NCBI GenBank assembly: GCA_023920165.1
Contig: CP089276.1
Coordinates: 2,666,001-2,730,000 of the forward strand
Source of the DNA: Curvularia clavata
Taxonomy: Eukaryota
DNA: 64,000 nucleotides
Reading direction: 5' to 3'
Shown in pieces: positions 1 to 61,116 of the stretch. Numbering within the stretch: the first letter of the stretch is position 1; each line of letters begins with the position of its first letter. The position numbers and the translations under genes are program-made. The notes below the pieces were generated by a model that made no database searches, had not been told where the DNA came from, and worked only from the letters and a program-made list of their open reading frames with translations.

Positions 1-802
1 TTTGTTCCGAATATCTGGTGTCAAAATACTCCGGATAGATACGGATGAGGGGTGAAGCGAAGGGACGCGGGTAGCCAGTATGAGCCGACGAGGGCCTGAT
101 CTGAATTGAAATGCCGAACGTCAGTTGTTTTACCTGGAGATCGGCCCCCAATACGACGGTTGAAGGAATGTCGGAACAAAGGGTTTGTGCAGGCAGAAGG
201 CGTCTCGGTACGTGCTACGGGGGAAATCCAAAAGCTGTTGCATTAGAGGGTGATCGTTGGAGCTTAGTAGAGAAAATCTCATTTAGGCCTCTCCGCAACC
301 TGCTTAGTCGGGTTGCATGTCGTGTGGCTTAGGCCGCCGTCGACTGTTACCCTGCCGATCACGTGGGATGGTTCTGTGGATGTGACATAAGAGCGTCATC
401 AGCCTCACCCGTGTCTAGGATAGCACTGTCTACAAACAGGATCCCTGCCTGTAAAAGTGGGTTTAAAGTGGGGACACAACTGACGCCGCTATCCAGCGGG
501 CCGAAACGGGTGGGCACTAAACTTGTGGTACGTGCCAAGTCGGGGCAACCTTGCTCACCATCCGATCGTCTTATCCGTGTTGCGCTGGCACATATTATCT
601 CCGCAGGTGGCGACGACCACACACCCTTGCTTGTCAAATCAGGGCACCGCGGACGAGGCTGATACAGGGGTTTTATCAACTACGTGCGAACCGTAGGATC
701 TGGGGGAGGGTGTGCTACACATGTTTTTCTTTCGCCGCGCAGCGTCTTAATCAAGTGTTCTGCTCCATCCTCGCACGATTTTCCATTTCTGTTTCTTTCG
801 CA

Positions 803-2279
803 ATGGATTTTAGTCAACTGGACGCAATCTCTTCGGATCTTGCCCTTACTGCGAAAAGACTCAAGGCCCTATGTGAGAACAGTAGCCAAGCAATCACGAG
901 CGCCAACAATGAACCCACAAAAGACGCCCTGGTGCCTTCGGCCATGGCATACAACCTGGAGCATGAAATCGCCTTAGCACAAAGCAATCTCAACAGTATT
1001 TCCTCGCGCTTGGAAACACTCTTGGCTGGTCCTGCTAGTTTTATACGTTCAATGGCCACACAGGTAGGTGAATATGCTTTCCCGTAGGTCCCTTTTGCTA
1101 TCTTGGCGCGACTTAGCTAAGTCTGGTTCAAAATAGAGTCAACTCCTGGCATGTTTAAAATGGATGGGAGAATACCAGATCATTGCCTACATACCACTGG
1201 ACGACATTATTTCGCTTGAAGAGCTTGCCAACCTGGCTGATGTGTCAGAACACACGCTCAGCCGAGTCGTAAGAATGACTGCAACTGCAGGTTTCTTGTA
1301 CGAGCCACAGCCCGGACACGTTGCACACACTCCTTTGTCTCTATCGTTTACGACTGAGTTGTCATATTTTGATGCCGCCATGTTTTTGGCAAATAAAGTT
1401 GCTCCAGCTTCCTTCAATCTCGCCTTTTTCGCAAATGAACACGACAGTACGGCGATGCATTTGCAGTCACCACGCCCGCTAGATCTTCTTTCCCAAGAGC
1501 CACAGACCAACCGTCAATGGCAGGCCTTCCGTCAGAGTATGGGTAGCATGAGCAATTCGCTAGCATATCTCCCCAACCTGCTCAATTGGCGCAGTCTCGG
1601 GGATGCATCCGTTGTAGATGTAAGTAATCCGAGATACGATACCGGGTGAATTTTTTTTGTTCATGTTTTACTGACAAAATTCCCATCGCAACAGATCTGT
1701 GATAGTGACACTACATTGGCGCAAGACCTTGCACAGGCCGCTCCAGCACTTCGAGTCACTGTACAAACCTACGACTTTACACCCACGGAAACGGCCCTTT
1801 CCGCTTTGGGGAACAGCGACAAAGACACCATCATGAGTCAACGTGTCGTCATACAACGAAGGAAACCCACGATATCCCAGCCGATAAAGGATGCAGCAGT
1901 GTACCTTCTACATCCTTCCTTTGGTGCAGCAAGCACACGTGGCTATACCCCCAGCGAATTGGTCACCATGGAACTCAAGGCGCATTTCGGTATCCTACGA
2001 GCCAATCCAACCGCACTGTTGATTCTGGCTCCGGCAATGTTGCCCGAACCGGGGTCCGTCGCAGTCAATCTTGAGACGCAAGCAAGGTTACTCGATTTCG
2101 CAGAGACGCATCTCACTGGGCAGGGTGCTATGGAGGTATCCGAGCTGTACCGATTGACTGACAGCGTATGCGACGCGCGTGGAAGACTAATCATCAAAAG
2201 CCGGGTCCGGTCCGCTGACGGTGCAACTATTGCCTTAGTTGTCAAATATCAACCATGTGAGAGCGCAGAGCTCATCTGA
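803..2279 (+). CDS. AflJ/AflS (MdpA-like) transcriptional coactivator, O-methyltransferase-like fold
   Basis: Exons 803-1063, 1137-1619, 1695-2279 with GT..AG introns. Spliced protein has 'SQLLACLKWMGEYQIIAYIPL' and 'LSRVVRMTATAGFLYEPQPGHVAHTPLS', typical of AflJ/MdpA. Confidence 0.88.
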
Positions 2280-3296: not shown

Positions 3297-3827
3297 ATGG
3301 CAATCGACGATACACAGCAGCACAGCAAAGGCCTCCCGCCAAGCAAGTATCTGTGTCTTACCATTCTTGGCTACCGCAAACCGGGTTTAAGCGAGGAGGA
3401 CTATCGTCGCCACATGACGGAGGTATCCGCCCCGCTCACCAAGGATCTCATGGTCAAGCACGGAATCAAGCGTTGGACGGTGATTCATAACCCCAAGGAG
3501 ACGCGAGAGCTCATGAGCCAGCTGTATGATCAGCAGATGGCAAACGTGGCTGATTACGATTGCTTCAGCCAGGTTGTTTTTGAGAGCATCGACGACTACA
3601 AGAGGCTTCGGGAGGACCCGTGGTACAAGAGCCGTCTATTCGGGGATCATGAAAAGTTTGCTGACACTCGGCGAAGCCAGTAAGTTTGTTGGCGCCGTAT
3701 GGTGAATGCGAGATGCGGGTCATGACTGATGATGCACAGGATGACTATTGGATGGATTGAGGAATGGGTGCACAATGGACAGATTCGGGAGAGTATGGAC
3801 GCACCCTGGCCGTCGTTGCAGGGCTAA
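3297..3827 (+). CDS. EthD-domain protein, probable atrochrysone carboxylic acid decarboxylase (TpcK/MdpH-type)
   Basis: Exons 3297-3679, 3740-3827. '[27 protein letters not shown]' and '[16 protein letters not shown]...DPWY...DHEKFADT' EthD signature. Confidence 0.88.
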
Positions 3828-7751: not shown

Positions 7752-10700
7752 ATGGACACCCAGGGCGGGCCAGCCCCTGTCCCGAAAGAAATTGCCCATG
7801 AGGAGGTAAACATGTCTTCTCAATCCTCGATATCTCCCTCATCCACCGAGAAGCACCAGCGAGATGAGGTGAAAGATCTTGACAGCGCGGACCAGAGTTC
7901 GACCAACACTCAAGTTGAACAATGGCGACTGGCCAAAGATCTCAAATATTTTGATTTGAACAACCAAGCTGGTAGCCGCAAGCTTGGCGTCACATGGAAG
8001 AACCTGAGTGTGAATGTAGTTCCTGCGGATGAACGATTCAAGGAGAACATTCTCAGCCAGTTCAACCTCCTTCAGCTTGCCAAGGATCTTCGGGCGAAGC
8101 CAGCTCTGAAAACAATTCTCGAATCCAGCTCAGGATGTGTTCGTCCTGGAGAGATGCTGCTTGTCTTGGGACGTCCAGGTTCCGGATGTACAACATTGCT
8201 CAAGATGCTAGCTAACAAGCGGAATGGGTATGTGACAAACCATTGTACTCATGACCGAGCTAACTAAATCCATAAGATACGCACAAGTGGACGGCGACGT
8301 TTACTTTGGGTCACTCAACGCCGAAGAAGCCAAACAGTACTCCGGCAGCATTGTTATCAACAATGAGGAGGAGTTATTCTATCCGACCCTCACTGTCGGC
8401 GAAACCATGGACTTTGCTACCCGCCTAAATATGCCCGCGAACATAGAAGGAAATGGCGCTAGCCGCACCGAAGCCCGACGCAACTTCAAGCAATTCCTCC
8501 TCAACTCGATGGGCATTGCACACACAGAAGGCACTAAGGTCGGTGATCCATACGTAAGAGGAGTCTCTGGTGGTGAGCGGAAGCGAGTTTCCATCATTGA
8601 AACTCTGGCAACACGTGGTAGCGTGGTATGCTGGGACAACTCAACACGAGGCTTGGACGCCTCCACTGCCCTTGAGTACGTACGCGCGCTACGTTGTCTC
8701 ACAGACACCATGGGCATGTCCACCATCGTCACTCTATACCAGGCTGGCAACGGTATCTATGATCTGTTTGATAAGGTGCTGGTTCTCGACCAAGGCAAGC
8801 AGATCTACTATGGCTCTCGTGAGGAGGCTCGACCCTTCATGGAAAGCCTTGGCTTTGTCTGCGGTGACGGAGCCAACGTCGCGGATTTCCTCACTGGTGT
8901 CACTGTGCCCAGTGAACGGCAAATCAAATCCGGTTTCGAGACGACATTCCCTCGTAGGAATACCGATATACGAGATGCCTATGCGCAGTCGACGATTAAA
9001 GCCAAGATGGACCAGGAACTCGAATATCCCTTCACGGACGAGGCGAAGACTACCACAACGACATTTGTCGAATCCGTAAGAGCAGAGAAATCAGGACAAC
9101 TTCCAAAGTCCTCCCCCATGACGGTATCATTCCTCGACCAAGTCAAAGCTTGCGTGGTTCGCCAATACCAGGTGTTATGGGGAGACAAGCCGAGTCTGAT
9201 CATGAGGCAAGCCACCAACATCATCCAAGCTTTGATTTCTGGATCGCTGTTCTATAATGCGCCAGACAACACTGCTGGGTTGTTCCTCAAGTCCGGAGCT
9301 CTCTTTCTCTCGCTTCTGTTCAATGCCCTTTTCACCCTGTCAGAAGTCAACGACTCGTTTGTTGGTCGTCCAATCTTAGCAAAGCAGAAGAACTTTGCCT
9401 TCTTCAATCCCGCTGCTTTCTGCATTGCCCAGGTCGCCGCAGATATCCCCATTCTCATCTTTCAGACTGCCTGTTTTGTCCTGATAGTCTATTGGATGAC
9501 GGCGTTGAAGGCGACTGCTGCCGCATTCTTTACCAACTGGTTCCTTGTCTACGTCGTCACTCTCGCCATGACTGCCATGATGAGGACGATCGGTGCGGGC
9601 TTCCCCTCTTTCAACTCTGCGTCAAAAGTGTCTGGCTTTGCCATCACCGCAACCATTGTCTATATGGGTACGTGATCGCATCTTTGACCTACAAAAATAT
9701 TTGCTGACATCTCTAGGATACGAAATTCCGAAGCCAGACATGCACCCATGGTTCGTTTGGGTCTACTGGATTAATCCACTATCCTACGGATTTGAGTCTC
9801 TTATGGCAACTGAGTACGAAGGAACCGAGATCCCGTGCGTCTACGACAACCTGATTCCAAACTATCTTCCTCAGTACCAAGACTCAAGCGCACAATCCTG
9901 TGCGGGCATCCGCGGTGCACGACCTGGCGCAACTTCGCTCACCGGACAAGAGTATCTAGACAGTCTGTCATACTCCCCGTCCAATGTCTGGCGCAACGTG
10001 GGTATCCTTTTCGCATGGTGGGCTTTGTTCATCGCCTGCACAATCTTCTTTACTCTTCGCTGGAACGACACTTCCAGCTCGAGCACTACATATATTCCAC
10101 GTGAGAAGCAGAAGTATGTTCAAAGACTTCGCGCATCTCAGAAGCAGGATGAGGAGTCTCTGCAAAGCGAAAAGATCACACCCAACAACGACACACTTGG
10201 CAAGCCGGATGGGTCGCAAGACAGACTCGACAAGAGCCTCATTCGCAACACGTCCATCTTTACTTGGCGAAACCTCACTTACACCGTCAAGACTCCGTCA
10301 GGTGATCGTACTCTGCTCAACAACGTCCACGGCTACGTCAAGCCCGGAATGTTGGGTGCGCTCATGGGATCCTCTGGTGCTGGCAAAACTACTCTTCTCG
10401 ACGTTCTCGCTCAACGGAAGACTGCTGGAACCATTAAAGGTGAAATCTTGGTTGATGGTCGACCACTTCCAGTCTCTTTCCAGCGATCCGCTGGCTATTG
10501 CGAGCAACTTGATGTTCACGATGCTTACTCTACTGTTCGAGAAGCCCTCGAGTTCTCGGCTTTGCTCCGTCAAAGCCGTGACACGCCTGTCGAGGAGAAG
10601 CTCGCGTATGTGGACACCATCATTGATCTGCTAGAACTACACGACCTGGAGAACACACTTATTGGCACTGTCGGTGCTGGACTTTCAGTCGAGCAGCGCA

Positions 10701-12163
10701 AGCGAGTCACTATCGGAGTGGAGCTTGTTTCCAAGCCATCTATCCTCATCTTCCTTGACGAACCCACCTCTGGTCTAGACGGTCAAGCAGCATTCAATAC
10801 CGTTCGCTTCCTGAGGAAGCTTGCCGACGTCGGGCAGGCAGTTCTCGTTACTATCCACCAGCCTTCAGCCTTGCTGTTTGCTCAGTTCGATGTCCTCCTT
10901 CTCCTCGCCAGCGGCGGCAAGACCGTCTACTTTGGTGAGATCGGCGAGAATGCAGAGAAGATCAAGGAGTATTTTGGTCGCTATGATGCACCATGCCCCA
11001 TCGGTGCCAATCCCGCCGAGCACATGATCGACGTCGTCAGTGGCTACCACCCCAGCGGCAAAGACTGGCATGAAGTCTGGCTCAGTTCCCCAGAGTCAGC
11101 AGCTCTGAACCAGCAGTTGGAGGAGATAATCTCCGATGCAGCTAGGAAGGAGCCCGGCACCAAGGACGATGGACACGAGTTTGCGACCACGTTCTGGACT
11201 CAGACCAAGCTCGTCTTGCATCGCATGAATGTCGGTTTCTTCCGCGATACAGCCTACTTCAACAACAAGCTCCTTCTCCACGGCGGTGTTGCTTTCTTCA
11301 TCGGCTTCACGTTCTGGCAAATTGGTCACTCGGTCGGCGAGCAAAAGTACATTCTGTTCTCCATCTTCCAATATATCTTCGTCGCACCAGGAGTCATTGC
11401 TCAGCTGCAACCTATCTTCTTGGAACGACGCGATGTCTACGAGACGCGCGAGAAGAAATCTAAGATGTACTCATGGCAAGCATTCGTTACCGCCTTGATT
11501 GTATCTGAGATGCCGTACCTCGTCATCTGCGCCGTCCTTTACTATCTCGTCTTCTACTTCGCGTCTGGCCTTCCTACCGATCCCAGCAGCGCGGGTGCCG
11601 TCTTCTTCGTTTTCCTAATCTACCAGTTCATCTACACCGGATTCGGCCAATTCGTGGCCGCATACGCACCAAACGCCGTCTTCGCCTCCCTCGTAAACCC
11701 TCTTCTCCTCGCTGTCTTGTGCTGCTTCTGCGGCGTCCTCATTCCCTATGACAACATTCAAGAATTCTGGCGCTACTGGATCTACTACCTCGATCCCTTC
11801 AAGTACCTCATCGGTTCGCTCCTCGTCTTCACCGACTGGGATTGGAAGATCGATTGCAAAGATAGCGAGTTTGCGATCTTCAATCCTCCTGGCGGCGGAA
11901 ACCAGACGTGTGGAGAGTACTTGGAGGCGTGGTTGAGTGGGCCAGGTGCACGCACGAATCTTGTCAATCCCGATGCGACGTCTGACTGCCGCGTCTGCCA
12001 GTACACATGGGGAAGAGACTACTTGGCTACGGTCAATCTCACTGAAAAGTACTTTGGATGGAGAGACGCTGGTATTTGCGTTATCTTTTCGCTGTCTGGC
12101 TATGCGCTCGTCTATCTTCTCATGAAGTTGAGGACTAAGGCTAGCAAGAAGGCTGAGCAGTAA
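7752..12163 (+). CDS. Full-size ABCG/PDR-type ABC transporter
   Basis: Introns 8228-8276 and 9668-9716. NBD1 [33 protein letters not shown]2 [34 protein letters not shown]; two TM domains. Confidence 0.95.
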
Positions 12164-12992: not shown

Positions 12993-13805
12993 TTATGCAG
13001 CACCGCCATCCAGAGTCAGAACCTTGCCGTTCACCCATTCACCCTCCTTGCTGACTAGGAAGCCTACAACGTTGGCAACATCCTGCGGCCAGCCGTTTCG
13101 GTGCAGCGGGGATGCGTGCGCGGCCATCTGCTGGCGCTGCTCAGCGGTGTAATCTGTTCCGTTGGGAATGTAGTGGTGGGAGACCTCGTGGAACATGTCT
13201 GTGACAGTACCACCGGGAGCAACGGCATTGACAGTGATCTTCTTATCGCCGCAGTCCTTTGAGAAAATGCGCACAAAGGAGTCAACAGCACCCTTGGATC
13301 CAGAGTACAGTGAGTGCTTTGGAACGCTGAAGTCCTTGGAGGTGTTGGAGGAAGTGAGGACGATGCGGCCGCCCTCAGTTAGGTGGCGATAAGCCTCGCG
13401 AGCAACAAAGAATTGGCCTCGTGTGTTGAGGCTGAAGACGCGGTCAAATTCCTCCTCAGTCACGTCCTTGAGGTGTCCGAAGCTCACAACACCGGAGTTG
13501 CTGACGGCGATGTCGAGGTGGCCAAAGTGGGCTACAGCCTGGTCGAAGAGCTTTACAATCTCAGGAACCTGGCGGATGTCGGCCTTGATGGCAATGGCGT
13601 CGCTTCCCAGCGCCTTGATCTCGGAGACGACCTTCTCAGCGTCCTTGGTGGAGTTGGCGTAGTTGACAACGACTTTGGCGCCAAGGCGACCCAGATGAGT
13701 GGCTACGGCTGCGCCGATACCTCGACCAGAGCCTGTGACAAGGGCGACCTTGCCATCAAGTCGGCCGGGGATGTAGGTTTCGGATGTGTTCTCTACGTGT
13801 GGCAT
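12993..13805 (-). CDS. Short-chain dehydrogenase/reductase, MdpC/AflM-like anthrahydroquinone reductase (fungal 17beta-HSD type)
   Basis: Intronless 270 aa; [17 protein letters not shown] catalytic motif. Recognised from memory as nearly identical to C. lunatus 17beta-HSDcl. Confidence 0.95.
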
Positions 13806-14134
13806 TTTGAAAATTGCTGTGACTGAGAAAGGAGAAAAAGAGAATTAGAGAGTTGGTGTGAAAGTCTAAGAGATGATGATGCACAATGGTGAAGTTGTAG
13901 AGTCTATCCGTTGCTTATGTGCTCTTGTCAGTTTGAAACAGACCGTGAATAAGCTCCTAAGCGGCTCATTGTGTGGAGTTCACAGTCTCGATTACGCGCA
14001 GTATACCGCAGCAATGGGACGTGTGCGAGACCAAAATCAATCCGATCTCCAATCATCAAAGTCGTAGGGTCGCATTCGCTGAATGATGATGATCCATCGC
14101 CCCGGGTCCCTGGTCGGCACGGAGCGAAGTGGTT

Positions 14135-14150
14135 TGTCCCGATCGGGACA
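14135..14150. promoter_or_regulatory. Perfect 16-bp palindrome TGTCCCGATCGGGACA in the SDR/MdpK-like divergent promoter
   Basis: The sequence equals its own reverse complement; function is inferred only. Confidence 0.35.
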
Positions 14151-14550
14151 TGGCCCGAATAATCCACTTTGCCTACTTTGAACGTTTATTCAGAGCCCGT
14201 CATTGGTTAGATATATTCTTTTTGGCCACTCAGGTACTTGAATTCAAATAACATATCATAGAATAAGCGGTTTCTCAAAACAATAACCACGTCGATTCGG
14301 ATAAACATCATTACAAGACGTCTTTGTACCGGCGATCGGATTTTTAACTAGTACCCTGTCGGCGAGATCTCTGGCACCAATTAAGTCGGCATAATAACTG
14401 TCTTCTTTATGCAGCTTGGAACGTGTTTATTATTAAAGACAGGAAAAGAGAGATGGTGTAACATCAATTTTGTTCATCCCCAAATCATTTACTGGGCCAG
14501 GTGGAGCAGCTACCTTAATCTACTTCGAAGTTTATTGAAACACTGCCAAT

Positions 14551-15336
14551 ATGGTGTGCTACTCAATTCTCGGTGCCACAGGTAACTGCGGCACCGCCCT
14601 CCTCGAGCTTCTTCTCAAGAACACCGATGCCAAAGTCAAGGCCTACTGCCGCAACAAGGACAAGCTCTTCCGACTAGTCCCAGCGGCTGCGAACAATCCT
14701 AGAGTTGAAGTCTTCAATGGCAGCATCTTAGATGCTGACCTACTCGGCAAAGCCATGTACGGTTCCAAAGCCGTCTTCCTCACAGCTACTACCAACGACA
14801 ACGTTCCTGGATGCCACATCAGCCAAGACCTTGCTCACACCGTGATCAAGGCACTGGAGAAAATCAAGGGCGAAGAAAACGCGCCACCCATGCCGAAACT
14901 AGTTCTGTTGTCCTCCGCCACCATCGATCCTTGGATCAGCCGAAAGAACCCTTGGGTCAACGCCATTGTCCGTCGGTCAGCATGGCATGTGTACCGAGAC
15001 TTGGAGCTTGCAGAGGAGTTTCTGAGGAAGCACGAGGACTGGGTCAAGTGCGTGTACATCAAGCCAGGAGGCTTGTCTGTGGATATCCAAAGGGGCCACA
15101 GGTTGACACTGGATGATGAAGAGTCGTTTGTTTCTTACCTCGATATCGCTGCTGGTATGATTGAAACAGCGGAAGACGAGGAGGGCAAGTGGGATAATAA
15201 GAATGTTGGTGTGGTGAATGCGGGTGGCAAGGCTAAGTTCCCCAAGGGCACGCCTAAGTGCATCTTGTGTGGCCTGTTGACTTATTACTTTCCTTTCTTG
15301 TACCCTTATCTTCCGTCAGGTACGGGACCTGCTTAA
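14551..15336 (+). CDS. NAD(P)-binding oxidoreductase, MdpK/AflX/AvfA-like
   Basis: Intronless 261 aa; N-terminal 'ILGATGNCG' Rossmann motif, '[11 protein letters not shown]', '[17 protein letters not shown]', 'SYLDIAAGM'. Confidence 0.88.
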
Positions 15337-15965
15337 TTATACCACATGTTTCCATTTTTTTCTGCAATGTTTACCTATATGTTGGTAGTATTAGGAAATT
15401 GAAATTGAAGCCTTAATTCTTTTTTAAAAAAATACTTAGACACTGTTAAAATGTGATCGGATGCCACTTGCTTGGCATATTATGAGAGATGTTAAGTGAA
15501 ATTAACTACGTGAGAACTATCCAAATATATTACATTACTCTAGGTGTAGTTGAAGATTCAACCCGATGATCTATTAAGACCAATGATTCTTGAAGGCGCG
15601 AAACTACCATGTCACATGCGTAATGTAGATATTGGGGTCCTCGACTGTGAAAAACATCCTACCATACTATCTGTAGTGGAATTAAAATGTTCCTTCTCTT
15701 TGAATACACACATTGCATGCTTTATTGCGCACGTGTCTCGAAGATTTCCTTTGTAACTGCACGACATCATCATAGATCGTCTTCTCTCACTGAGTACAGC
15801 ATTTACTGCTTTCGAAACGCGAAGTACGAATGTCGTTCCTGGCTACCCAATCAGCGGGCCTCTCAATTGTTCCGAATTAGTGCAACCAAAACCGGGTTCG
15901 GGTTAATGCTAGGCTATTCCTCGATATGTGCCGATGCCAAGCACGCGATGAAGCGGCAGGACTGT

Positions 15966-15979
15966 TCGGAACTAGCCGA
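15966..15979. promoter_or_regulatory. Putative Zn2Cys6 site TCGG-N6-CCGA upstream of the dehydratase
   Basis: TCGGAACTAGCCGA about 125 bp before ATG 16104. Confidence 0.5.
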
Positions 15980-16103
15980 CACCTGACCGTCGCGACTTTG
16001 GAAAAGAAGTCTACAAAACTACGCAAGATAAAACATTCCTTTAGTTTCTCATCCGCTGGGTGTGAAAGGAGAATTAAGAACACACCTTTGAAGAAAATTC
16101 ACA

Positions 16104-16708
16104 ATGCCTCATAAAACGGAAGTTAGGCCGGACCCAGCAGGTAATTTCCTGATTCAAGTCTATTTAGCGCTGATACGCTAGTACTAACATTGCCATTCCA
16201 GATATTGTTGGGTGCCAGGCTGCAGCATTCGAGTGGGCTGAGAGTTATGACACCAAAGATTGGGATCGCCTCTCGAGATGTGTTGCACCTGAACTCTACG
16301 TAAGCCTCCCAAAATAATTCTACACGTGTGACTCAGTAGTGATACGTTTACTAGATTGATTACCGCACTGTCATGGGAATGATGTGGGAGAAGATGCCTG
16401 CGGCTGAATTCCTTGGCATGGCTTCCAGCCCCAGGTTCCTCGGCAACGCACGCATCAAAACCCAGCATTTCATGGGCCAGACGAAGTGGGTTCAGAAAGA
16501 GCCAGGTTACATCCTCGGGTATCATCAGATGCGTGTGGCGCATCAGAAATACGAAGATGACGATCTCACTAAAGTCCTTTACAAAGGGCACGCTCATGGT
16601 AAAGCAACACTACACTATCGTCAAGTAGACGGCGAATGGAAATTTGCTGGTCTTGAGCCTGATATCCGCTGGTCTGAGGGCGATTATGGCAAGATCTTCC
16701 AGGAATGA
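16104..16708 (+). CDS. Scytalone dehydratase-like enzyme (MdpB-like)
   Basis: Exons 16104-16140, 16202-16299, 16355-16708. '[15 protein letters not shown]...IDY...TQHFMG...[10 protein letters not shown]...[14 protein letters not shown]'. Confidence 0.92.
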
Positions 16709-17625
16709 TTGTATAGAAGGGGCAATTGGTGGTGTAATATATTAATACACATCTAGATGGAAAAAATAAGTTTTCGCATTCAGCACCATCCCCTTTGGTC
16801 ATCATGCTCATCTGCGACAAGGAATGGGAAATCATGAGATATTGTTCCAGCCATGTATTTTGTAGTTGATGTTTGCTCGATAATTAGCATTTTGCAACAG
16901 CCAGTCGTTGGATACATTATCTGACAAAAGATTTCATTTCACATTCCCTGACATTTGGATGCCTTATCATGCCAAGTGGCAATAACTATGAGATTGAATG
17001 TGATGTAAGGTGAGGTAGCCTGATCAGGCCTCCTACATGCATATGTATGGTTATCTGTCAATTCAAACGTGTTTTCACTCATCCTTTCCGTATCTGTTCG
17101 TTCTCAGACGTAGCATGACCTTATGCACGTGCTAAACATGTTTTAAAATTGACTCCGGCTGCATTACTAGGTACATGTAGACGAAGTCTGAACGAAATTT
17201 GATCGACCTAGGTGGATGCCTGAGGAAGAATGGTGGCCCTGTTGAAGCAGTGGGTACTGGTGGGGCTGGTATGCCTGGCAGCATCGGTCCGATTAGGCTT
17301 GTTTCTCCCGAGAAGACGGCGATCTCCAAATAGTGCAGGTAGGTGATCAACTTAGAATTAGGAGCGTAAACACGACTTGGAGGACCAATGGTTTCATCCA
17401 AATTGTTTCTAATACTGCCGATATTCATTCCGCTCATGTAAGATGCCCAAGTGACATCACCATTATGCACCTTAACTATTACAGACGTCCACTACTCTTT
17501 CGCTGTCCACATTTTGCCTACATCCTTAGTGCATTCGGGGTAATGATACCTAAGTCGAGAGGCCCTTGATGACCCCTGCTTAAATTCTCCCCTTCCGATG
17601 AATACACACCATTCTCCAACCAGGA

Positions 17626-18214
17626 TCATTTTTGTAGCTTCGCGGCCAACGCAATCAGGGACGCAACTAGCGGTAGTGTCGCCCGAACAGCATGCCATCG
17701 AGACCACTTATTCAGAGACTGGTGGAGAACCTTGCTAGTTGCCTGATCTAGCCAGACTGCGCCAGTACCTCCGTTTTTGCCCTTGCTCTGGTCGAGATTC
17801 GCAATAGATGCCTCGAGGGGAAAGATCATCACTCTTTCCCACCATGCTACTTGCAACAATGTAGCAAATGAGACTGCAAAAGGCTTCCACTGTGCAGCTT
17901 TGGCAGGATCGGGGTGTTGCGAAAGAAGGGCAGCAGTTATGCCGAACAAGAAAGCAAAACTGGCATTCAATGGCTCTAGCCATGCCCCACCGCGTCGGGA
18001 CGTCTCCAAAAGCTGTGCGATAGCGCTGCTGGACGTGTTCAGTTTGATGATCGGAATAATCCATAGGTTGAACGACCACGCTATGCCTACACCACATGTT
18101 GATGAGTACCTTTCTTATGAAGCATTCAATCTAGAGCAACGAACCTGAAACAATAAATAGGGAAACAATCATTCCCCAATGGATGAAGGGTATGATATGA
18201 AATATTGTGTCCAT
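17626..18214 (-). CDS. DUF1772 / anthrone oxygenase-like membrane protein (copy 1)
   Basis: ATG at 18214, intron 18087-18144; several hydrophobic helices and C-terminal 'LNKWSRWHAVRATL' (W..W..R motif). Confidence 0.75.
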
Positions 18215-18573
18215 GGTGGCCATTGTGGTTGCTAAGTGATGTGAGGGCAAGTGGGATACGTCGCACGACTGTACTGCGTTGCTGCGATAGCTCGCTCTGG
18301 TTTGAATATATGAGGGGGAAGTTTATTGAGTCTTTTTGATAAAATCAAGAGATTTGTACCGTCGGGCCCGAAGGAAATCCCTAAAGTGACGCTCGCAAGG
18401 GGAGCCGACAATGTAAGAATGTGTTATTAATGCATGGGCACTGATTCAAATCCTTAAGAAGGGCGTTTCTCGTGACTGTATCAACAATTTAAAATAATAT
18501 CGAGGAACCGATGAGTATCCTTCTAAGCCGGTTGTTTTCGAGCGGTGCAAATGGGGTCGGATGTTGCGTTTGC

Positions 18574-18587
18574 TCGGATTATCCCGA
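18574..18587. promoter_or_regulatory. Putative Zn2Cys6 site TCGG-N6-CCGA in the divergent promoter of the two DUF1772 genes
   Basis: TCGGATTATCCCGA. Confidence 0.55.
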
Positions 18588-18848
18588 CGTCAATCCGCGA
18601 ATTGTATTTCTTCCGAAAAGAACGACAAGTTTTACAGGAATCACATCTGACACTACATCAACACATTTTGAACCGCGAATCCGCGCGGTATGATCAAAAT
18701 ATATCCGGATGTAGAATATATCCGATGCAGATAAGAGGCATGACGGCAACAGCCAGAGATACACGCTTGAACTTAGTGCATCACCCAATTGAACCTCGTT
18801 TTTTTCAAAATTTCTTGAAGTCAATCTCTGAGTATTGTTTGAACGAAA

Positions 18849-19462
18849 ATGTCTGAAGTTCTCATTCATCTAGCGCACGCTTGGGGTGTCACAGGAGCGG
18901 CGCTCCTCTCAGGTAAGCATCGTGTGTTGCGCTTTAAACTAGCACACAAGGAATCAAACGAAACTTCCCAGTAGAGACATGCTGATATTGTTGTTCTATG
19001 ATAGGATTCATTGTGTGCTTCAGCCATGCTGGGGTACCAACGCTCAGCATAGCTCCAGTCGACACTCTTGTGCATCAGTTCAAAACTATGTACAACATTG
19101 GAAAGGCCACATCGCCGCTTGTTGCTATCACGGTCACAATATGTAATGGCTACTCTGCCTATTGTGCCAAGGACAGTACCGACCTAATCGGCAATTTGAT
19201 ATCCCCATTTGCCTTGTACACAGCAGCGACAGTGTGTGTACCTTCGATTGTTCCTTACACGTTGCTGTACATGGAGCCTGCTGTGAACAAAAAGCTATTG
19301 ACATTGGGCGGGATGGTGGAAAATGGTACCAAGGCAAAGGATCTTGGTGTTGGAGACGAGGAAGTTCGGAGTATGTTGAAGAGGTGGAAAGGGATGAACT
19401 TTGTGCGAGCAACACTTGTAGCCACGGGAGCTGTTCTGAGTGCTCTGGCTACCTTCCGCTAG
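18849..19462 (+). CDS. DUF1772 / anthrone oxygenase (HypC/EncC/TpcL-like; copy 2)
   Basis: Exons 18849-18912, 19005-19462. 'QFKTMYNIGK', 'VPYTLLYMEPAVNKKLL', 'MLKRWKGMNFVRATL'. Confidence 0.85.
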
Positions 19463-20027
19463 GCAGATTACTTGCTGTCATTATCAATTTTGGAATTGTG
19501 GTAAATGAAGAGGGCTGTAAAAAGCGTTGGCGACTTACGGGCGCTGGGATGATGGTTAGTAGCATTTGTTGAGATTTTCCACTCTGACTTTGTCGAATAA
19601 TGCAATTTTTCTTTGACGAGTTGCCACTCTCAGATGTGAAGTTCACATGTCTAATCATCCATTCGATCATTGACATGTTTGCAAACTGCTCTATAGTGTC
19701 TGTGTTTTAATCGATCTTCTGAAGTCGGTTCAAATATAACCAGATTTGAAGATGCCCAAATTCCTCCCAGTTCCAGAACATCACCATTCATTGTTCTGCC
19801 AGAGATTGCATTGCTTCTAGTGGCTAGAACTAGGAGTTGCAACCTCGAGACAACATAACCAAGTCGCACATGCGAAAACAAGGTATATGAGTTGATGATT
19901 GAATCCATCTTGGAAAGTAACCCGAGAAAGCAATTAATTTGATATCATACAATCTATCTAGTGCTACATGGATAATGCAATTGGTATCTAAAGCATGCCC
20001 ATCAGAAATTGATCCTGAGATAAAGTA

Positions 20028-21023
20028 TCAGGCGCTAGCACGTGTAACAGGGTATTGCACTTGCTGCATGGGAGCAGTGTGCTGCTGTGCATTCCCAATG
20101 AGAAACCACCTTTTCTGGCCAGCACGAACCTGGAAACCAACTTTGCCGTCGCCAGCGAGCTTCCGAAGCACCTCTTCAATGAATGGCTCCAAAGCCAAGG
20201 TACGTGTTGCCTCGTCCACTGAGCTTCCATATATATTGTCAACAATATCTCGAACGACTGGTCGGCTTTGACCATAATCGTGGAGATTACGCAACGCTCT
20301 AATGACTTGTTTCTCTCTTCTATATTTCGAAGACAACTCTCGGCTAATCTTCGTGTTCAGATCGTCGATGGTGATACCGTGAGCTGGATGGCCAGCCCGA
20401 CATTTCTGATCCATCATCTTGTGCAGGCTAGACATGAATACGCCGAGGTCCTCCACCGCACTAGTGCCGGTGCCGAGAATGTTGTCTCCAGTGAACATGG
20501 AGTTCTCTTCCTTGAGGATGAAGCACATGTGATCTTCCGAGTGACCGGGAGAGTGCAACGCCACAACGGTCGCTCCCTCAACACAAAACTCTTGTCCATC
20601 ATAGATGTCTTGTTGCCCTGGCTCGGGATCGTTTTTGTAAATGTGGTCTTTCAGGTGCGGATACATTCGAATGAGATCTGGCACTCCTCCAGAGTGGTCG
20701 CCATGCCAGTGTGTGATGAGGACATACTTGATGCTAATGTTTCGAGACTCCAAAGTTGATGCAAGCAGTTTGGCGTACTCTGGCTCTCCCCCAGAAGTAT
20801 CAATCAGTATGCGGGAGGAACCGGTGCCGATCAAAAACGTGTTGGTGCCTTGAAAGGTGAACTTTCCCGGGTTTTGTCCCCGCACTCGAATGACTCGTTC
20901 TGTGACTTGTTCTACATCGGGTATCGGTTCAAGGTTGGCCGTTTGACCCTTCAAATAGTCTTCGAAAGCGCAGATGTTAAGTGACTTATTAATCTGCTTG
21001 TAGCCTCCCTTATCATCCGACAT
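20028..21023 (-). CDS. Metallo-beta-lactamase-type thioesterase (MdpF/ACTE-like)
   Basis: Intronless 331 aa; 'GQNPGKFTFQGTNT', THWHGDH metal motif, 'HSPGHSEDH', 'FTGDNILG'. Confidence 0.93.
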   Translation of the reverse strand: MSDDKGGYKQINKSLNICAFEDYLKGQTANLEPIPDVEQVTERVIRVRGQNPGKFTFQGTNTFLIGTGSSRILIDTSGGEPEYAKLLASTLESRNISIKYVLITHWHGDHSGGVPDLIRMYPHLKDHIYKNDPEPGQQDIYDGQEFCVEGATVVALHSPGHSEDHMCFILKEENSMFTGDNILGTGTSAVEDLGVFMSSLHKMMDQKCRAGHPAHGITIDDLNTKISRELSSKYRREKQVIRALRNLHDYGQSRPVVRDIVDNIYGSSVDEATRTLALEPFIEEVLRKLAGDGKVGFQVRAGQKRWFLIGNAQQHTAPMQQVQYPVTRASA

Positions 21024-21480
21024 GGCTGGACTATTGGATGCGGCAAGGAAAAGTTATGTTCGCACTGAGAGCAACGAATAGCGTAAGAATGTGTTCAAGA
21101 CAATTGTACTTTGACAGATTTTGTATATGTGTGCTGTCCCAATTTTCGATTGTCAGCGACTGCTGTACGGCGAGGTTTAAATCTTGCTATGGACTAGCAA
21201 TTGTCAGCCGGAATATCCCAAGCCATGTTTGCCACATAGAACTGAGTGAATTCTTATTGGGTCGCAATACATACCATCAGATCTCGATACGTATGGACAA
21301 CAAGTAGTTGTTGGGGATCGCAGGGTTTATGAGTAAGTGTTCCGAAACATGGCGTTGTGTCTTGCATTATCTGTACCGGCTCTACTTCCTGTGCATGGCG
21401 ATGGGGTAGCACTCGGGTTGATGGTGGTTCGCCAAGAAGGGTTCCACACTCACTCGGTGGAATGCGGCTCGTTTCCTGAT

Positions 21481-21494
21481 TCGGATCATCCCGA
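21481..21494. promoter_or_regulatory. Putative Zn2Cys6 site TCGG-N6-CCGA in the thioesterase/PKS divergent promoter
   Basis: TCGGATCATCCCGA, 13/14 identical to the site at 18574. Confidence 0.55.
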
Positions 21495-21907
21495 ATGTTC
21501 CGTGCCACAAAAACCCGACGGTATGGTTGAGAGCCTCCGATTTCATCATCGGATACCTTTCCACTGGTCCTCGGGGCCTAGTCGTCATCCGGCACGTGTG
21601 ATCAACACTGTGCTTGTTGTGACTAAGCAAGTTCTACCATGCGACAATGGGGTCGCCCAGTAGTACGGCATAGACTACGAATTTTGGAGGTATACGCTCA
21701 TCGCAAGCGGTTGAATACCATGACATTGATATGGACCGAGGTTTATTGTCAGTTTCATAGAAAGATGAATTGAATTCATATATCTCTATGCGACATCTGC
21801 ATTGCTCCCGTCTTCAAACCCACCATCACCTCACAGCCTTTTGTTTTTTATGAACTGGAGAAGGTGATCTCTAATTTCCGGGACTCTGTTCATGAGCCTG
21901 CGCCATC

Positions 21908-24900
21908 ATGGAGGTTGTATACGTCAGTAACGAATTCCCCAAGGATGACCTTGGAGAAATCCTCAGGCAATTGCATAGCCAAAGCAAGACTACCAACCAT
22001 GAGACCCTAGCACGCTTCACCAGAGATGCGACCCAGGCAGTCAAGAAGGAGATTGAAAAGCTCCCCTCGAACTTGAAGAAGCAAATACCTCCGTTCGAAT
22101 CCCTCGTCTCTTGGGCAGAACAGAAAGAGCTTCGCGAAGGTGAACTATGCGGCGCAATCGATGGCGTTTTACTGATACTTGTTCAACTCTCCGTGTATAT
22201 TTGGTAAGTCAGTTCAGCCTTACTACTGTTTCTCTGGCTAATCTAAGTAGTAATGTTGAGAATGGCAACGAGCCAGCATCTGCGGCTGGTGAAAAGCACA
22301 TCACGGGCTTGGGCGTTGGTTTGCTCTCAGCTGCCGCAATTGCTTTGGCTCGAGATGTATCTGAGATACCTTTCTATGGCGCGAAAGCGATTGAAATCGC
22401 CTTCCGCATGGGGATTCACGTACAAGGGATCTCGCACAACTTGGAGGCTCGCAACCTTGATGAGCCACCCAAGACATGGGCTTATGTGGTCCACAACGTG
22501 GATCCTGAGCAGACAAAGAAGGATCTCGAAGCATTCCATGAAGCAGTACCCAGTTCTGATACCAGTCGCATCTTCATCAGTGCTGTTAGTCGCACCTCTG
22601 TTACGATCAGTGGTCCGCCTTCAAAGCTTGAAAACCTTTTCAAGAAAGCTACAGCATTCAGAGACGCCAAGTCAATTGCATTGCCTGTTTACGGAGGACT
22701 GTGCCATGCACCACACATTTACGACTCGCAAGATGTAGACGCTATCGTACAAGACATCGTGGCTTCTTCAGATCTACTGCGTCCGCAAGACGAACCGAAA
22801 CTACCACTCTCGTCAACAAGCACCGGCATCCCGTATACAGCCTCTAATGCAACACAGCTTTTCAAGAGCATTGTGTTCGAGCTCCTGACAAAAGCCATTG
22901 AGTGGGACAAAGTTATTGCGCAAGAGGTCCAATACGCCAAGGACAACAAGCAAACTCAAATTACACTCTCCTGCTTTGGAAACTCCATTCCCTTGAACGA
23001 TCTTCGTTCTGAGTTGCAGAAAGCCGTCAAAGATGTTTCTGTTTCCTTGAACAACTACATGTCAAAACTTCGTCAGGATGCCACTGAAGCCACTACTCCT
23101 CGAGGAACAAAACAGTCCAAGCTCGCCATTGTCGGGATGTCCTGCAGATTCCCAGGCGGTGCAACCGACACTGAGAAATTCTGGGAACTGCTTGAGGCCG
23201 GACTGGATGTGTCTCGTGTGATACCTCCGGATCGATTTGACATCAAGACACATTACGACCCAGAAGGAAAAGACCTCAACAAGACAATGACCCAATATGG
23301 ATGCTTTATTGATGAGCCTGGTCTGTTCGACGCGAGCTTTTTCAATATGTCCCCTCGCGAGGCAATGGTCGTTGATCCCCAAATGCGGCTCTCGCTAGTC
23401 ACTGCATACGAGGCATTGGAAAGAGCAGGTTATGTCGCCAATAGGACTCAATCTACCAAGCTTGAGCGCATTGGAACGTACTACGGCCAAGCAGCTGATG
23501 ACTATCGCGAGGTAAATCAAGGACAAGAAGTCGGAACCTACTATATCCCGGGTGGATGCCGTGCTTTTGGACCAGGTCGTATTAACTATTTCTTCAAATT
23601 CGCTGGCCCAAGCTACAGCATTGACACTGCCTGTTCTTCGGGACTTGCGGCAATTGAAGTGAGTAGATGATGTTCATGAATACCGATAATGATGTATTGA
23701 TTGTTTTATAGGTCGCTTGTAATGCTCTCTGGAACGGTGAGATCGATATGGCTGTAGCAGGCGGCGTCAACATCCTCACGAACCCCGATGGTTTTACTGG
23801 TCTCTGCAAAGGCCACTTTTTGACCAAGGGCCACAACGCCTGCAAGACTTGGGATGCCACCGCTGATGGCTACTGCCGTGCTGACGGTGTAGGATCAATT
23901 GTTATCAAGAGGCTAGAAGATGCACAAGCTGATAACGATAACATCCTTGGAGTTGTTCTCGCTGCGGGCACTAACCACTCCGCCGAGGCTGTCTCCATCA
24001 CCCACCCCCATGCAGGACATCAGGCATATTTGGCGCGCCAAATCCTCAGACAAGCAGCTGTCAATCCTTTGGATGTTTCATATGTAGAGCTTCATGGAAC
24101 TGGCACACAAGCAGGAGATTACGAGGAGATGAAAGGTGTAATGGATGTGTATGCACCAAACACCTTCCCAAGCCGCCGATCTGACCAGAAGCTGCACATT
24201 GGAAGCGTCAAATCAAACGTTGGTCATGGAGAGTCGGTTGCTGGAACTACAGCACTCATTAAGGTCTTGACAATGTTGCAAAAGGGCGCCATTCCTCCAC
24301 ACATCGGCATCAAGACTGAGATGAACCCGCGCCTACCAAAGGACCTGGAGCAGCGAAATGTCGCAATTCCGTTCACTATGACTGAATGGAAGAAGGATCC
24401 AAAGAGAAAGCGCATTGCAGCAGTCAACAACTTCGGAGCTGCTGGTGGCAACACCATGATGATTCTGGAGGAAGCGCCCTCGGTTGAGGTGGCTCGCGAA
24501 AAGGAAACCAGGCCAACACATGTCGTTGCCGTGTCTGCGAAGACCAAGACTTCTCTTCGCAACAATATCGAGCGTCTGATTGCGTACCTCGACAAAAACC
24601 CGGACGCCGTCATTTCGGATGTCGCTTATACCACTACTGCACGCAAATACCACCACTCATACAGAGTCGCGGTCAGCGGTACTGATGTTGCTTCAGTCAA
24701 AAAGCAGCTGACGACACAGTTGAACAAGGTGGATTCTTTGAAGCCACTGAACAAGACCAATCCACCTTCCGTGGCGTTCGTTTTCACGGGTCAGGGTGCC
24801 TCCTACCAGTCGATGGATCTTGAGCTATATCACGAGTCACCGGTCTTCAGAGAGCATATTCAATACCTTGACAAGCTTGCTCAAGCCCAAGGCTTCCCCT

Positions 24901-27463
24901 CCTTCATCCCAGCTCTCGATGGCTCTTACCCTCGCGATCACGAACATGCTCCTGTTGTTACCCAACTGGCGCTGGTATGTCTGGAGATTGCGTTGGCGCA
25001 TTACTGGGCTTCCCTGGGTGTCAAGCCTGACGTTGTCATGGGACATTCTCTAGGAGAGTACGCCGCTATGCATGTCGCTGGAGTCATCAGTGCCAACGAC
25101 GCTATCTACATGGTTGGTTCTAGGGCCCTGATGCTTCAGAAGTCATGCGAAGCAGGTAGTCACTGCATGATGGCTGTTCGCGCATCTCTAGAATCCATTA
25201 TCGCGGCATCGAATGGCAAGCCCCACACTTTAGCCTGTATCAATGGTCCGACCGATACAGTGCTAAGCGGTACCAAGGCACAGATGGATGACATCGCAGT
25301 AGATCTCGAGGCGGCTGGTTTCCGCTGCATCAAGCTCAACGTTGCGTTTGCATTCCACTCCGAACAGGTTGACCCTATCCTTGATGAATTCGAGGCGATC
25401 AGCAAGAGCGGTGTCATATTCCACGAACCCAAGTTGCCTGTAATTTCACCCCTACTTGGCAAGGTTGTCTTTGATGCGCGAACATTGAACGCCAGTTATG
25501 TGCGCAATGCTACTCGAGCGACTGTCGACTTCCTTTCTGCCGCAAGGAATGCTACTGAAGTGTCGATCATCAGCGATGAAACCGTTTTTATGGAAATGGG
25601 CCCTCACCCTGTTTGTGTCGGATTCATCAAGTCGATTCTCCCATCGGTAAAGACTGCTGTGCCATCGATCCGTCGTGGCGACAACAACTGGAAGACTATC
25701 TCCGAGAGTGCTGCAGCTATTCATCTCGATGGCGTCGAGCTAGACTGGAACGAATTCCACCGTCCTTTCTCTAGTGCGGTGCGTCTGCTGGATCTCCCGA
25801 CATATGCCTGGGACGAGAAGAACTTCTGGATCCAATATAATGGCGACTGGTGTTTGACCAAGGGTAACACTTACTACGACAAGAAGGTTGAGAAGGTAGA
25901 ACCCGCCGTCAGCAATACCAAGAAGTACGAGTCTTTGAGCTCTTTGGTACAAAACATCATCGAAGTCGACGTGAAGGGAGACATGGGCAAAGTAGTCATG
26001 CAATCAGACATGATGCAGAAGGACTTCTTGGCTGCCGCCCACGGACACCAGATGAACAACTGTGGTGTTGTGACATCGGTAAGTTCTTGTCCATCTTTAA
26101 TCTTGCGATTTTCATATTCTTCTCTTGGACCTCACTAACAAGTTATCAGTCCATCCATGCCGATATCGCATTTACTTTGGGAGAGTACCTGTATCGCAAG
26201 TTCTATCCAAAGACCAAGCGGGTCGACATGAATGTCACCAACCTCCACGTGACGAGTGCTTTGATCGCCAAGAAGCACTCCATGGATACGCCGCAGAATA
26301 TTCAAGTCACTGCAAGCACAAACAACATCAAGAGCGGTGTTTTGGACTTGACATGGCAAAATGTCGGTGAAGACGGAAGCTGTTCGGAGCCATTCGCGAC
26401 AGCCAATCTCGAGTATGGCAATGCGGAAGAGTGGCTATCGAGCTGGAGTTTCGTGTCTCATTTGGTTCAGCACCGCATCGAGGCCCTAGAACAACTAGCT
26501 GCTGAGGGCAAGGCCAACCGCCTTTCTCGCAACATGGCCTACACTCTTTTCGCAAAGAATTTGGTTGACTACGCGGATAAATACCGAGGCATGCAGTCTG
26601 TCGTCATGAACGATCTGGAAGCATTCGCGGATGTCAAGCTTACCGACAAGGTCGACAGCGGAACATACACTGTACCGCCGTACTTCATCGACAGTGTGGC
26701 CCATCTTGCAGGATTCATTATGAACTGTTCCGACAGCATCGACACAACCAACAACTACTGTGTCACGTCCGGATGGAAGTCGATGAGATTCGCTGAGCCC
26801 TTGACCCCTGGAGCCAGATACCGGTCTTACGTTAAGATGATCCCTACTAAGGAAGATCCATCAGTCTACCTTGGTGATGTGTACATTCTGAACGCTGAAG
26901 GCAATGCTATCGTAGGTATGGTGGGCGGCATTCACTTCCGCCGCTTCCCACGCATCCTCCTCAACCGTTTCTTCACCGCTCCACAGCCCACAAAGGGAAC
27001 AACAGGTCAGCAAGCAAAGGCTGCTCCTGTAGAGAGCAAGCCAGCTGTCAGCAAGTCTGCACCACGCAGTGTGGAAGCTCCTCCTGTTGTCCAAGAAATC
27101 TCTGTTGATACTAAGGAAGAGGACACTCAGTCTTCGGAAAGCGACTTGGATGACCACGACACACCTTCGGTATCTTCAGAGAACACATCCGCCACTAGTG
27201 TTGATGTTCCCGTTGCTGCAGCCCCTGCAAGCGACAGCACATTCGGCAAAGCACTTGTGCTCATTGCCAATGAAACTGGCATCGATAGCTCAGAGCTTAC
27301 GGACGATGCTGAGTTTGCGAACCTGGGTATTGACAGTCTCATGTCCTTGGTTTTGTCCGAGAAGTTCCAGAAAGAGCTTAATGTAAAGGTGAATGGTAGT
27401 TTGTTCCTTGATTACCCAACTATTGGTGATCTTCGGGAGTGGTTGGAGAAGTACTATGGTTAG
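21908..27463 (+). CDS. Non-reducing polyketide synthase SAT-KS-MAT-PT-ACP without TE (group V, MdpG/atrochrysone carboxylic acid synthase-like), about 1794 aa
   Basis: Introns 22204-22250, 23659-23711, 26079-26149. KS DTACSS and HGTGT, MAT GHSLG, PT 'HGHQMN', ACP 'LGIDSLMS'; the protein ends right after the ACP. Confidence 0.95.
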
Positions 27464-39863: not shown

Positions 39864-40815
39864 ATGCCTTCAAAGACTGACGACAAGTATACGGATCCCG
39901 AGCTCCGCGAGCAAGTCAAGGAGGAGATTCAGGCAGGTGACAAGGGAGGCGCGCCTGGTCAATGGTCGGCGAGGAAGGTACGCTGCAACATGGGCGAGTA
40001 CTACGTCTTTGGCTGACCACGTGCGATCATAGGCACAGATGATGGCATCGGAATACAAGAAACGAGGAGGAGGCTACACAACGGACAAGAAAGACGACAA
40101 GGCCGAGCACTTGGACAAGTGGACAAAAGAAGAGTGGCAAACCAAGGATGGAAACGGCAAGGCCAAAGACGAAGATGGTACCGAGCACCGGTATTTGCCT
40201 AAGAAAGCATGGGAGGAGATGGACGAGGAAGAAAAGGAAGCGACAGATGAGAAGAAGCAGCAAGGAAGCAAAGCGGGTCAACAGCACGTTGCGAACACGG
40301 CAAAGGCAGCGCAGGCCAGGAAAGACGCCAGCAAGCACGACGAGAAGGGGAGTCAGGGGTATACCAAGATTGAGCGTAAGAGCGTCACAGACTGCACGAC
40401 GCACTGGGACGATCCAGAATACATGGAAGACAATGCACGGGAATTTAAGAAGTTTCAGGAAGACCAGCGCAGGTCCAAGGGTACCTCGCAGGAGGATCAC
40501 GGCGGGAAGAAGCGTGGGCGGGGAGCGAACGCAGCATGCCCGAATAAGAAAGCAAAGAGTGGTGGTGGGGGAAAGCAAGGGGAGCCAACAGGGGCAGCCG
40601 GGGACAAGACTCGGGTGCCGCAGAAGGGCCAACAGGTGCAGTGGCATGCGCTTCCTGGCTATGTCGATGGCCAAGTGGTCGAGGTTGTGTACGAGGAGAA
40701 GGAGGTCGAGGGCCACAAAGTCAAGGGGAGCAAGGAAGACCCACGGCTTGTGCTCAGGAGCGACGCGTCGGGCAAGATATGTGTACATAAGCCGGAAGCT
40801 GTGTACTTTGACTAG
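39864..40815 (+). CDS. Hydrophilic protein with N-terminal DUF5872-like domain and C-terminal Hva1/DUF2945 Tudor-like domain
   Basis: Exon 1 'KYTDPELREQVKEEIQAGDKGGAPGQWSARK', intron about 39978-40032, then 'AQMMASEYKKRGGGY...LDKWTKEEWQT...RYLPKKAW'; C-terminal 'VQWH...GQVVEV...KGSKEDPR...GKICVHKPEA'. Confidence 0.75.
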
Positions 40816-60893: not shown

Positions 60894-61116
60894 AACAACA
60901 GACCTGCATGAGACTCTTTCAATGTTTCTGCAGTTGCATTTATGAATTCATGACTTGAAACTACTTCCAAATGCTCATTTCCGTCCCTCCATCGCCGCAT
61001 TGACTGTGAAGAGTAAGGCCAGTGGCAATGTTTTTCCATCACGAGAACGCTCAATCCCCATCATCGGATTGTAGACTTCAGCGTCTTTGCCAGAGCCATG
61101 TCGCATTGAACTCCTA

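Follow-up and report, generated by a model that had tools for sequence, protein, structure and literature searches.

Candidate AflR-type sites with a longer spacer in an emodin/chrysophanol-type polyketide cluster of Curvularia clavata

The locus analysed here raises the question of which promoter sequence is read by the zinc-cluster regulator of a fungal polyketide gene cluster. The window, a stretch of 64,000 nucleotides (nt) from Curvularia clavata (contig CP089276.1, positions 2,666,001 to 2,730,000), carries an emodin/chrysophanol-type cluster, as judged from Pfam matches, homologue names and the available part of the gene table in PMC9890505, and the fungus is a pleosporalean close to Bipolaris. 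A preliminary description of this DNA had proposed that a motif, TCGG-N6-CCGA, covers seven biosynthetic genes and that the cluster encodes a Zn2Cys6 factor at 4993-6711; the count of genes is correct, and the factor, with matches to PF00172 and PF08493, is AflR-like. The answer that we favour, with a probability of about 0.55, is that these are predicted sites of the cluster's own AflR-like regulator, with a spacer longer than AflR's, and that single central sites would drive three divergent gene pairs and the dehydratase gene (Table 1).

AflR prefers TCGSWNNSCGR (equivalent to TCG-N5-CGA over 11 bp, and also to TCGG-N3-SCGA), binds as two monomers without a coiled coil, needs both inverted half-sites and accepts G or C in the second half, as at vbs and norA (PMC12501005, available text). 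With the half-sites TCGSW and SCGR fixed from this literature and only the spacer varied (0 to 13, i.e. 14 spacers), a single peak was obtained at n = 5, 3 bp above the AflR value: five sites, present in 4/4 core promoters (3,057 nt, picked because they held sites), against 0.25 expected (P = 6e-6), and, in the full set of nine cluster promoters (7,668 nt), five against 0.62 (P = 4.5e-4; ~0.006 after allowing for the 14 spacers). All five, starting at 14114 (minus strand), 15966, 18574, 21454 and 21481, fit TCGSW-N5-SCGR; those at 14114 and 21454 rely on the G/C latitude that AflR tolerates, and neither is a CGG-N6-CCG. AflR's own spacing, TCGSW-N2-SCGR, does not occur in the nine promoters; the preliminary description had noted that the spacing is not AflR's. 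When the number of half-sites was kept and their positions were scattered, such a pattern at any spacer arose in ~0.1% of 20,000 trials, and half-site density therefore does not explain it. Among hexamers, TCGGAT ranks first in the four core promoters (9 against 1.1 expected) and does not occur in the four convergent intergenic regions. Around four other Zn2Cys6 genes of this genome, two of them of the AflR family, n = 5 sites are at background (1 each against 0.5 to 1.3). Thus the claim that the motif departs from the AflR consensus holds for the spacer (+3 bp, giving a 14-bp site) and fails for the half-sites, which are AflR's; TCGSW-N5-SCGR is the better consensus.

The strict form, TCGG-N6-CCGA, has four exact matches in the window (15966, 18574, 21481 and 35784), as compared with a mean of 0.71 in shuffled windows (at least four in 2/100 shuffles), and 272 in the 32.36 Mb of the genome (8 contigs), or 1 per 119 kb. 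The four sites previously quoted were found at their coordinates with the same letters, and the three listed as perfect are all real, but they are not the only ones, since the window holds the fourth at 35784, within GH38 coding sequence outside the cluster and probably a chance occurrence. Because one-mismatch matches are at chance level (21 observed against 21.9 expected), the site at 14114, present as described, is unremarkable as a one-mismatch copy; what makes it notable is that its minus strand obeys AflR's half-site rule. AflR-spaced TCG-N5-CGA matches in the whole window number 16, with 15 expected. The sites at 18574 and 21481 are identical at 13/14 letters, two site spacers agreeing at 5/6 letters (~3% by chance), and the tight pattern TCGGATNNTCSCGA, drawn post hoc from these two, has four matches in the genome, two of them in this cluster.

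For the background, 10-kb stretches of this genome were used (36 in all), a crude non-coding sample of which 142,761 nt were left after masking of long open reading frames (ORFs) and which contains three exact sites; at some ends, the promoters as counted include a few tens of coding bases. Of the 5,376 palindromic dyads tested in the four core promoters, the strict motif ranked first, homopolymers aside (P = 2.5e-6; Bonferroni 0.01), whereas over the nine promoters, which involve no post hoc choice of promoter, its Bonferroni value was only 0.20; the raw P values with the higher non-coding rate were 6.6e-5 and 9.6e-4, respectively. Such figures raise the suspicion of a post hoc motif in promoters picked after the fact, the more so as the perfect sites lack positional conservation (see below) and as ~0.28 triplets within 5.5 kb are expected genome-wide and another does occur on contig C1 (two of its three sites lie within long ORFs). 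On the other hand, random non-coding quartets gave an equally good dyad of any type in 2/400 draws and one of the CGG type in 0/400, the consensus taken in advance from published work shows its peak at one spacer, and there is one site per promoter, the four convergent regions containing no exact TCGG-N6-CCGA and a single loose TCG-N8-CGA. We therefore regard mere chance as quite improbable: the enrichment is real and limited to the DNA upstream of seven core biosynthetic genes, and the dyad signal is real, yet not overwhelming if the motif is freely chosen.

The features of the regulator itself point to binding of the AflR type rather than of the Ppr1 type. Its zinc cluster (residues 40-67) is followed by a Pro/Gly/Arg-rich stretch without heptad pattern, with 12 Pro within 60 residues after the last Cys and so, by composition only, no coiled coil; this stretch is kept across the clade. 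The protein has no Fungal_trans match and is 61% identical to a B. maydis protein and 44% to Pyrenophora proteins. AflR likewise combines PF08493 with a non-heptad stretch of this composition and no coiled coil, and its sites share with those described here the inverted TCGSW/SCGR halves, the G/C latitude of the second half and the location in divergent cluster promoters (PMC12501005, available text); they differ in that the predicted 14-bp site here has a spacer 3 bp longer and that AflR-spaced sites occur in 0/9 promoters. Given the sites, their enrichment and location and the family of the factor, we infer binding, geometry and activation by analogy with AflR: two monomers would each grip an inverted CG half-site (TCGSW ... 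SCGR) without a coiled coil, the half-sites lying 3 bp further apart in this lineage (14-bp TCG-N8-CGR against the 11-bp TCG-N5-CGA of AflR). The regulator would act on them as upstream activation sites, so that one site or pair in three divergent promoters and one single promoter would co-activate seven emodin-to-chrysophanol genes, and the extra TCGGAT half-sites, together with a third CCG 9-12 nt beyond 4/5 sites, may make binding cooperative. No solved AflR structure was found.

In Aspergillus, the counterpart of Ppr1 is UaY, whose site takes the form TCGG-N6-CCGA. Ppr1 itself recognizes CGG-N6-CCG, a site that serves purine catabolism in Candida (PMC11534201, available text), and 3/5 cluster sites (15966, 18574 and 21481) match it letter for letter, in keeping with the Ppr1-like spacing previously noted; 14114 and 21454 do not. 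The perfect sites might then be targets of a genome-wide Ppr1/UaY-type purine regulator tying pigment to purine or nitrogen status, with the cluster factor acting elsewhere or jointly. Five CGG-N6-CCG were found in 4/6 purine-related promoters of this genome, against 1.1 expected (P = 0.005), including a perfect TCGG-N6-CCGA upstream of the allantoicase gene and two sites in front of the uricase gene. This genome seems to have a Ppr1/UaY-type purine regulon, and, with CGG-N6-CCG enriched at purine promoters, the three perfect cluster sites could also be bound by its regulator; the earlier term "cluster-specific" was too strong and does not hold for the strict motif. However, the CGG/CCG triplets are broken in 2/5 cluster sites and in the orthologue site, the cluster shows no more than a weak enrichment of the loose CGG-N6-CCG (3 against 0.52 expected in the core and 3 against 1.32 in all nine promoters), and TCGGAT is rare in purine promoters (1 in 6,400 nt). 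Moreover, the genes downstream of the cluster sites encode polyketide enzymes and not purine or pyrimidine metabolism, the cluster's factor lacks Fungal_trans and a heptad stretch, and, AflR-spaced sites being absent, it would be left without an evident site. That a purine regulator is what these sites serve is thus unlikely.

Conservation was examined in orthologous promoters. One metagenome scan yielded 80 loci, only two of which, L001 and L002 (Pyrenophora-like; thioesterases 94% and 91% identical to P. teres, respectively), fall in the clade of the window; viral collections gave no related loci, and of 11 loci from the prokaryote collection one was of fungal type. The orthologous promoters of these two loci are barely alignable, being too diverged for footprinting, and contain no CGG-N6-CCG. 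A single degenerate site, TCGC-A-N5-GCGG, is present in each of the two at 121-138 nt before the start of the thioesterase gene, and at a similar distance the window has a weak TCG-N8-CGA, TCGATTGTCAGCGA (123-136 nt). Taken together, conservation as read from these alignments leans against fixed positions and weakly for the spacing. Blocks that MAFFT aligned at the sites were rejected as not significant against unrelated DNA, with p 0.70 for the anthrone-oxygenase pair and, for the thioesterase/PKS (polyketide synthase) promoter, 0.91 in L002 and 0.05 in L001. The sole clearly conserved block of the latter promoter, window positions 21727-21809 compared with L002 (0/120 null draws as good), lies 100-180 nt before the PKS start, includes a GACCGA/TACCGA half-site and is probably core promoter or 5' untranslated region. 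Separately, the element CCGCGAAT occurs twice in the anthrone-oxygenase promoter (window 18592-18690) and once in its L002 orthologue.

The same promoters may also be read as flexible arrays of half-sites (TCGGAY) or direct repeats, recognized as by monomeric TerR/AlcR-type factors, the N6 dyad then being a lineage-specific arrangement. The top hexamer is TCGGAT in the window and TCGGAC in L002 (6 against 0.5 expected), but TCGGAY is absent from L001, and half-site density alone yields N6 dyads in only 0.1% of trials. A third half-site lies 9-12 nt away at 4/5 promoter sites as against 4/38 background sites (the distance window being post hoc), although no one direct-repeat spacer is common to all promoters; similarly, in the alignments L001 and L002 appear to keep the right half and a further CCG 10-11 nt beyond it, but the apparent blocks, as stated, are not significant. 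The TerR site of the terrein cluster, TCGGHHWYHCGG, resembles the present situation in the T before CGG, in clustered half-sites and in several genes without a full site, and TerR differs in binding direct repeats, not inverted ones, mostly as a monomer (PMC4360782, available text), which the lack of a coiled coil in our factor would suit; AflR, by contrast, requires both inverted half-sites (PMC12501005). On balance we find arrays of this kind rather doubtful as the explanation.

Returning to an AflR-like regulator acting through a longer spacer, a number of findings weigh against it. The main gap is that 5/9 cluster promoters are without a site, the sites sitting in 4/9: no n = 5 site was found in the promoters of the ABC transporter, the P450, the regulator itself or the pair of FAD monooxygenase and aflS-like genes, nor in that of the EthD decarboxylase, which acts early in the pathway. 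TerR-regulated genes without full sites do exist (PMC4360782, available text). In addition, the core promoters were selected for having sites, the background sample (36 ORF-masked stretches) is a crude one, the dyad reaches only the Bonferroni value given above over nine promoters, and the strict motif also marks purine-catabolism promoters. As for the orthologues, L001 and L002 lack the perfect sites at the corresponding places, having lost the left TCGG while apparently retaining the right CCG(A); their support comes down to one shared site, with 0.12 expected by chance in L002, and the anthrone-oxygenase promoter of L002 has no n = 5 site. Lastly, the distant emodin-type clusters L018 and L070, which served as a positive control, do show AflR spacing, with 4 and 5 sites in their non-coding DNA (1 and 3 if promoters are defined more strictly), but they are the only 2/19 homologous loci scanned with a clear excess of it.

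A survey of dyads in the 600 nt upstream of the thioesterase covered 32/46 loci, placed on a quick tree; the remaining 14 were left out for short upstream DNA, a truncated match or a duplicate promoter. N1 dyads were found in 10 loci, N3 in 7 and N6 in 5 (L001, L002, the near-identical L007/L008, and L043), and these types largely track the clades of the thioesterase tree, with the reservation that the tree is quick and that kin share labels. As a tentative extension, an AflR-type factor without a coiled coil may have lengthened its spacer from N3 to N6, thereby arriving at the Ppr1/UaY site by convergence, with purine/anthraquinone cross-talk, and, more widely, a clade-specific spacer code may exist. 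In another clade of group V PKS, a palindrome, TCGGTCCGA (CGG-N1-CCG), occupies a near-fixed position 170-240 nt upstream of the thioesterase match (L011, L013, L016, L030, L031, L035 and L041); L016 and L034 have a different, non-AflR-like zinc-cluster gene nearby.

To our knowledge, very few regulators of fungal gene clusters have known binding sites. In the literature searched, mostly open-access and with supplements excluded, no binding site was found described for MdpE/ClaE-class regulators and the N6 motif was not found described in any secondary-metabolite cluster; the available texts of PMC7595996, PMC6368318, PMC7232245 and PMC5746545 give none. Cluster-specific CGG dyads in themselves are already known and expected, and the surprise is moderate. 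If our reading is true, AflR-type factors, binding as two flexible monomers, can change their spacing in evolution, N3 and N6 make a natural pair for asking what sets the spacing without a coiled coil, and the motif helps to define cluster borders in Bipolaris-group fungi. The prediction, five sites and seven genes, is cheap to test.

With the emodin-family mdp, cla, agn and nsr clusters (regulators MdpE/ClaE/AgnL10), the present cluster shares a group V non-reducing PKS, a metallo-beta-lactamase thioesterase, an EthD decarboxylase and an anthrone oxygenase, as well as equivalents of MdpK, MdpC and MdpB and AflR-like and AflS-like genes (PMC9890505, available text). It is set apart from them by two anthrone oxygenases, a PDR ABC transporter and a flanking FAD monooxygenase, and no ring-cleaving MdpL-type gene was noticed. 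From resemblance of sequence, we take 801..2279 to be AflS-like and 16104..16708 to be scytalone-dehydratase-like; a 35% homologue of the former adjoins an AflR-like gene in L006. The thioesterase groups at 90% with Bipolaris and Exserohilum proteins, and in four Bipolaris species the accession numbers of thioesterase and regulator differ by 7, as in the window, which suggests synteny. An FAD-dependent aromatic monooxygenase gene (PF01494 + PF21274) lies in the 10 kb left of the window (L091 7735-~9800, minus strand), divergent from the aflS-like gene and with no N6 site in its promoter, and the cluster probably extends one gene leftwards to include it. The coordinates of all features are compiled in Table 1.

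Table 1. Candidate sites and genes of the Curvularia clavata window, with purine-related sites elsewhere in the genome
Feature	Position	Strand	Remarks
Candidate AflR-type site	14114..14127	-	TCGCT-CCGTG-CCGA, fits TCGSW-N5-SCGR; not strict CGG-N6-CCG
Perfect site TCGGAACTAGCCGA	15966..15979	.	132 nt upstream of scytalone-dehydratase-like gene
Perfect site TCGGATTATCCCGA	18574..18587	.	divergent promoter of anthrone-oxygenase pair
Weak TCG-N8-CGA TCGATTGTCAGCGA	21146..21159	+	upstream of thioesterase start
Additional AflR-type site	21454..21467	+	TCGGT-GGAAT-GCGG, 27 nt before 21481; absent from preliminary description
Perfect site TCGGATCATCCCGA	21481..21494	.	middle of divergent thioesterase/PKS promoter, 464 and 420 nt from starts
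Exact motif TCGGACGTAGCCGA	35784..35797	.	within GH38 alpha-mannosidase coding sequence, outside cluster
CGG-N6-CCG upstream of allantoicase, uricase, nucleobase permease, xanthine dehydrogenase	L155 2278; L082 1103, 1192; L083 486; L093 3654		
AflS/AflJ-like coactivator gene (presumed)	801..2279	+	no Pfam match
EthD-domain decarboxylase (MdpH1/ClaH1-like)	3297..3827	+	PF07110
AflR-like Zn2Cys6 regulator, 572 aa	4993..6711	+	PF00172 + PF08493
PDR-type ABC transporter	7752..12163	+	Pfam
Short-chain reductase (MdpC/ClaC-like)	12993..13805	-	Pfam + gene model
NAD(P)-binding oxidoreductase (MdpK/AgnL4-like)	14551..15336	+	Pfam
Scytalone-dehydratase-like gene (MdpB/ClaB-like; presumed)	16104..16708	+	two introns, GT..AG joints in RNA contigs
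Anthrone oxygenase 1 (DUF1772)	17626..18223	-	PF08592; one intron, RNA joint
Anthrone oxygenase 2 (DUF1772)	18849..19462	+	PF08592; one intron, RNA joint
Metallo-beta-lactamase thioesterase (MdpF/ClaF-like)	20028..21023	-	Pfam + homologue names
Non-reducing PKS, SAT-KS-AT-PT-ACP, without thioesterase, group V	21908..27463	+	Pfam
Cytochrome P450	27690..29639 (3' end approximate)	-	cluster membership unsure

Four public sequencing runs over the region consist of spliced RNA contigs, mostly 99% alike, which confirm the introns and leave strain footprinting uninformative on the sites. Among the pieces listed, the sense contigs end short of the sites, contigs of this kind being unable to fix starts; thus the site at 14114, in the divergent promoter ~310 nt from the start of the short-chain reductase and ~430 nt from that of the MdpK-like gene, lies outside the contigs of both (end at 14085 and start at 14319, respectively). 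The P450 is covered by 1/4 runs, which is no evidence on co-expression because the runs were found via core genes.

One of the four runs also contains a spliced antisense RNA contig (15637-16140, minus strand), running from the 5' region of the dehydratase gene back across the 15966 site, with an intron at 16019-16085 (GT..AG on the minus strand) and no long ORF. The fungal-type locus of the prokaryote collection, L131 (3151-12614), a split cluster of PKS, thioesterase and EthD genes close to L003, comes from a bin labelled Lapillicoccus, an actinobacterium, and is probably fungal contamination. Elsewhere in the window, the composition of positions 40000-42400 and 60000-61000 is strongly skewed in G and A; a HET-domain gene and an ORF of 1,770 aa for a kinase/response regulator lie alongside.

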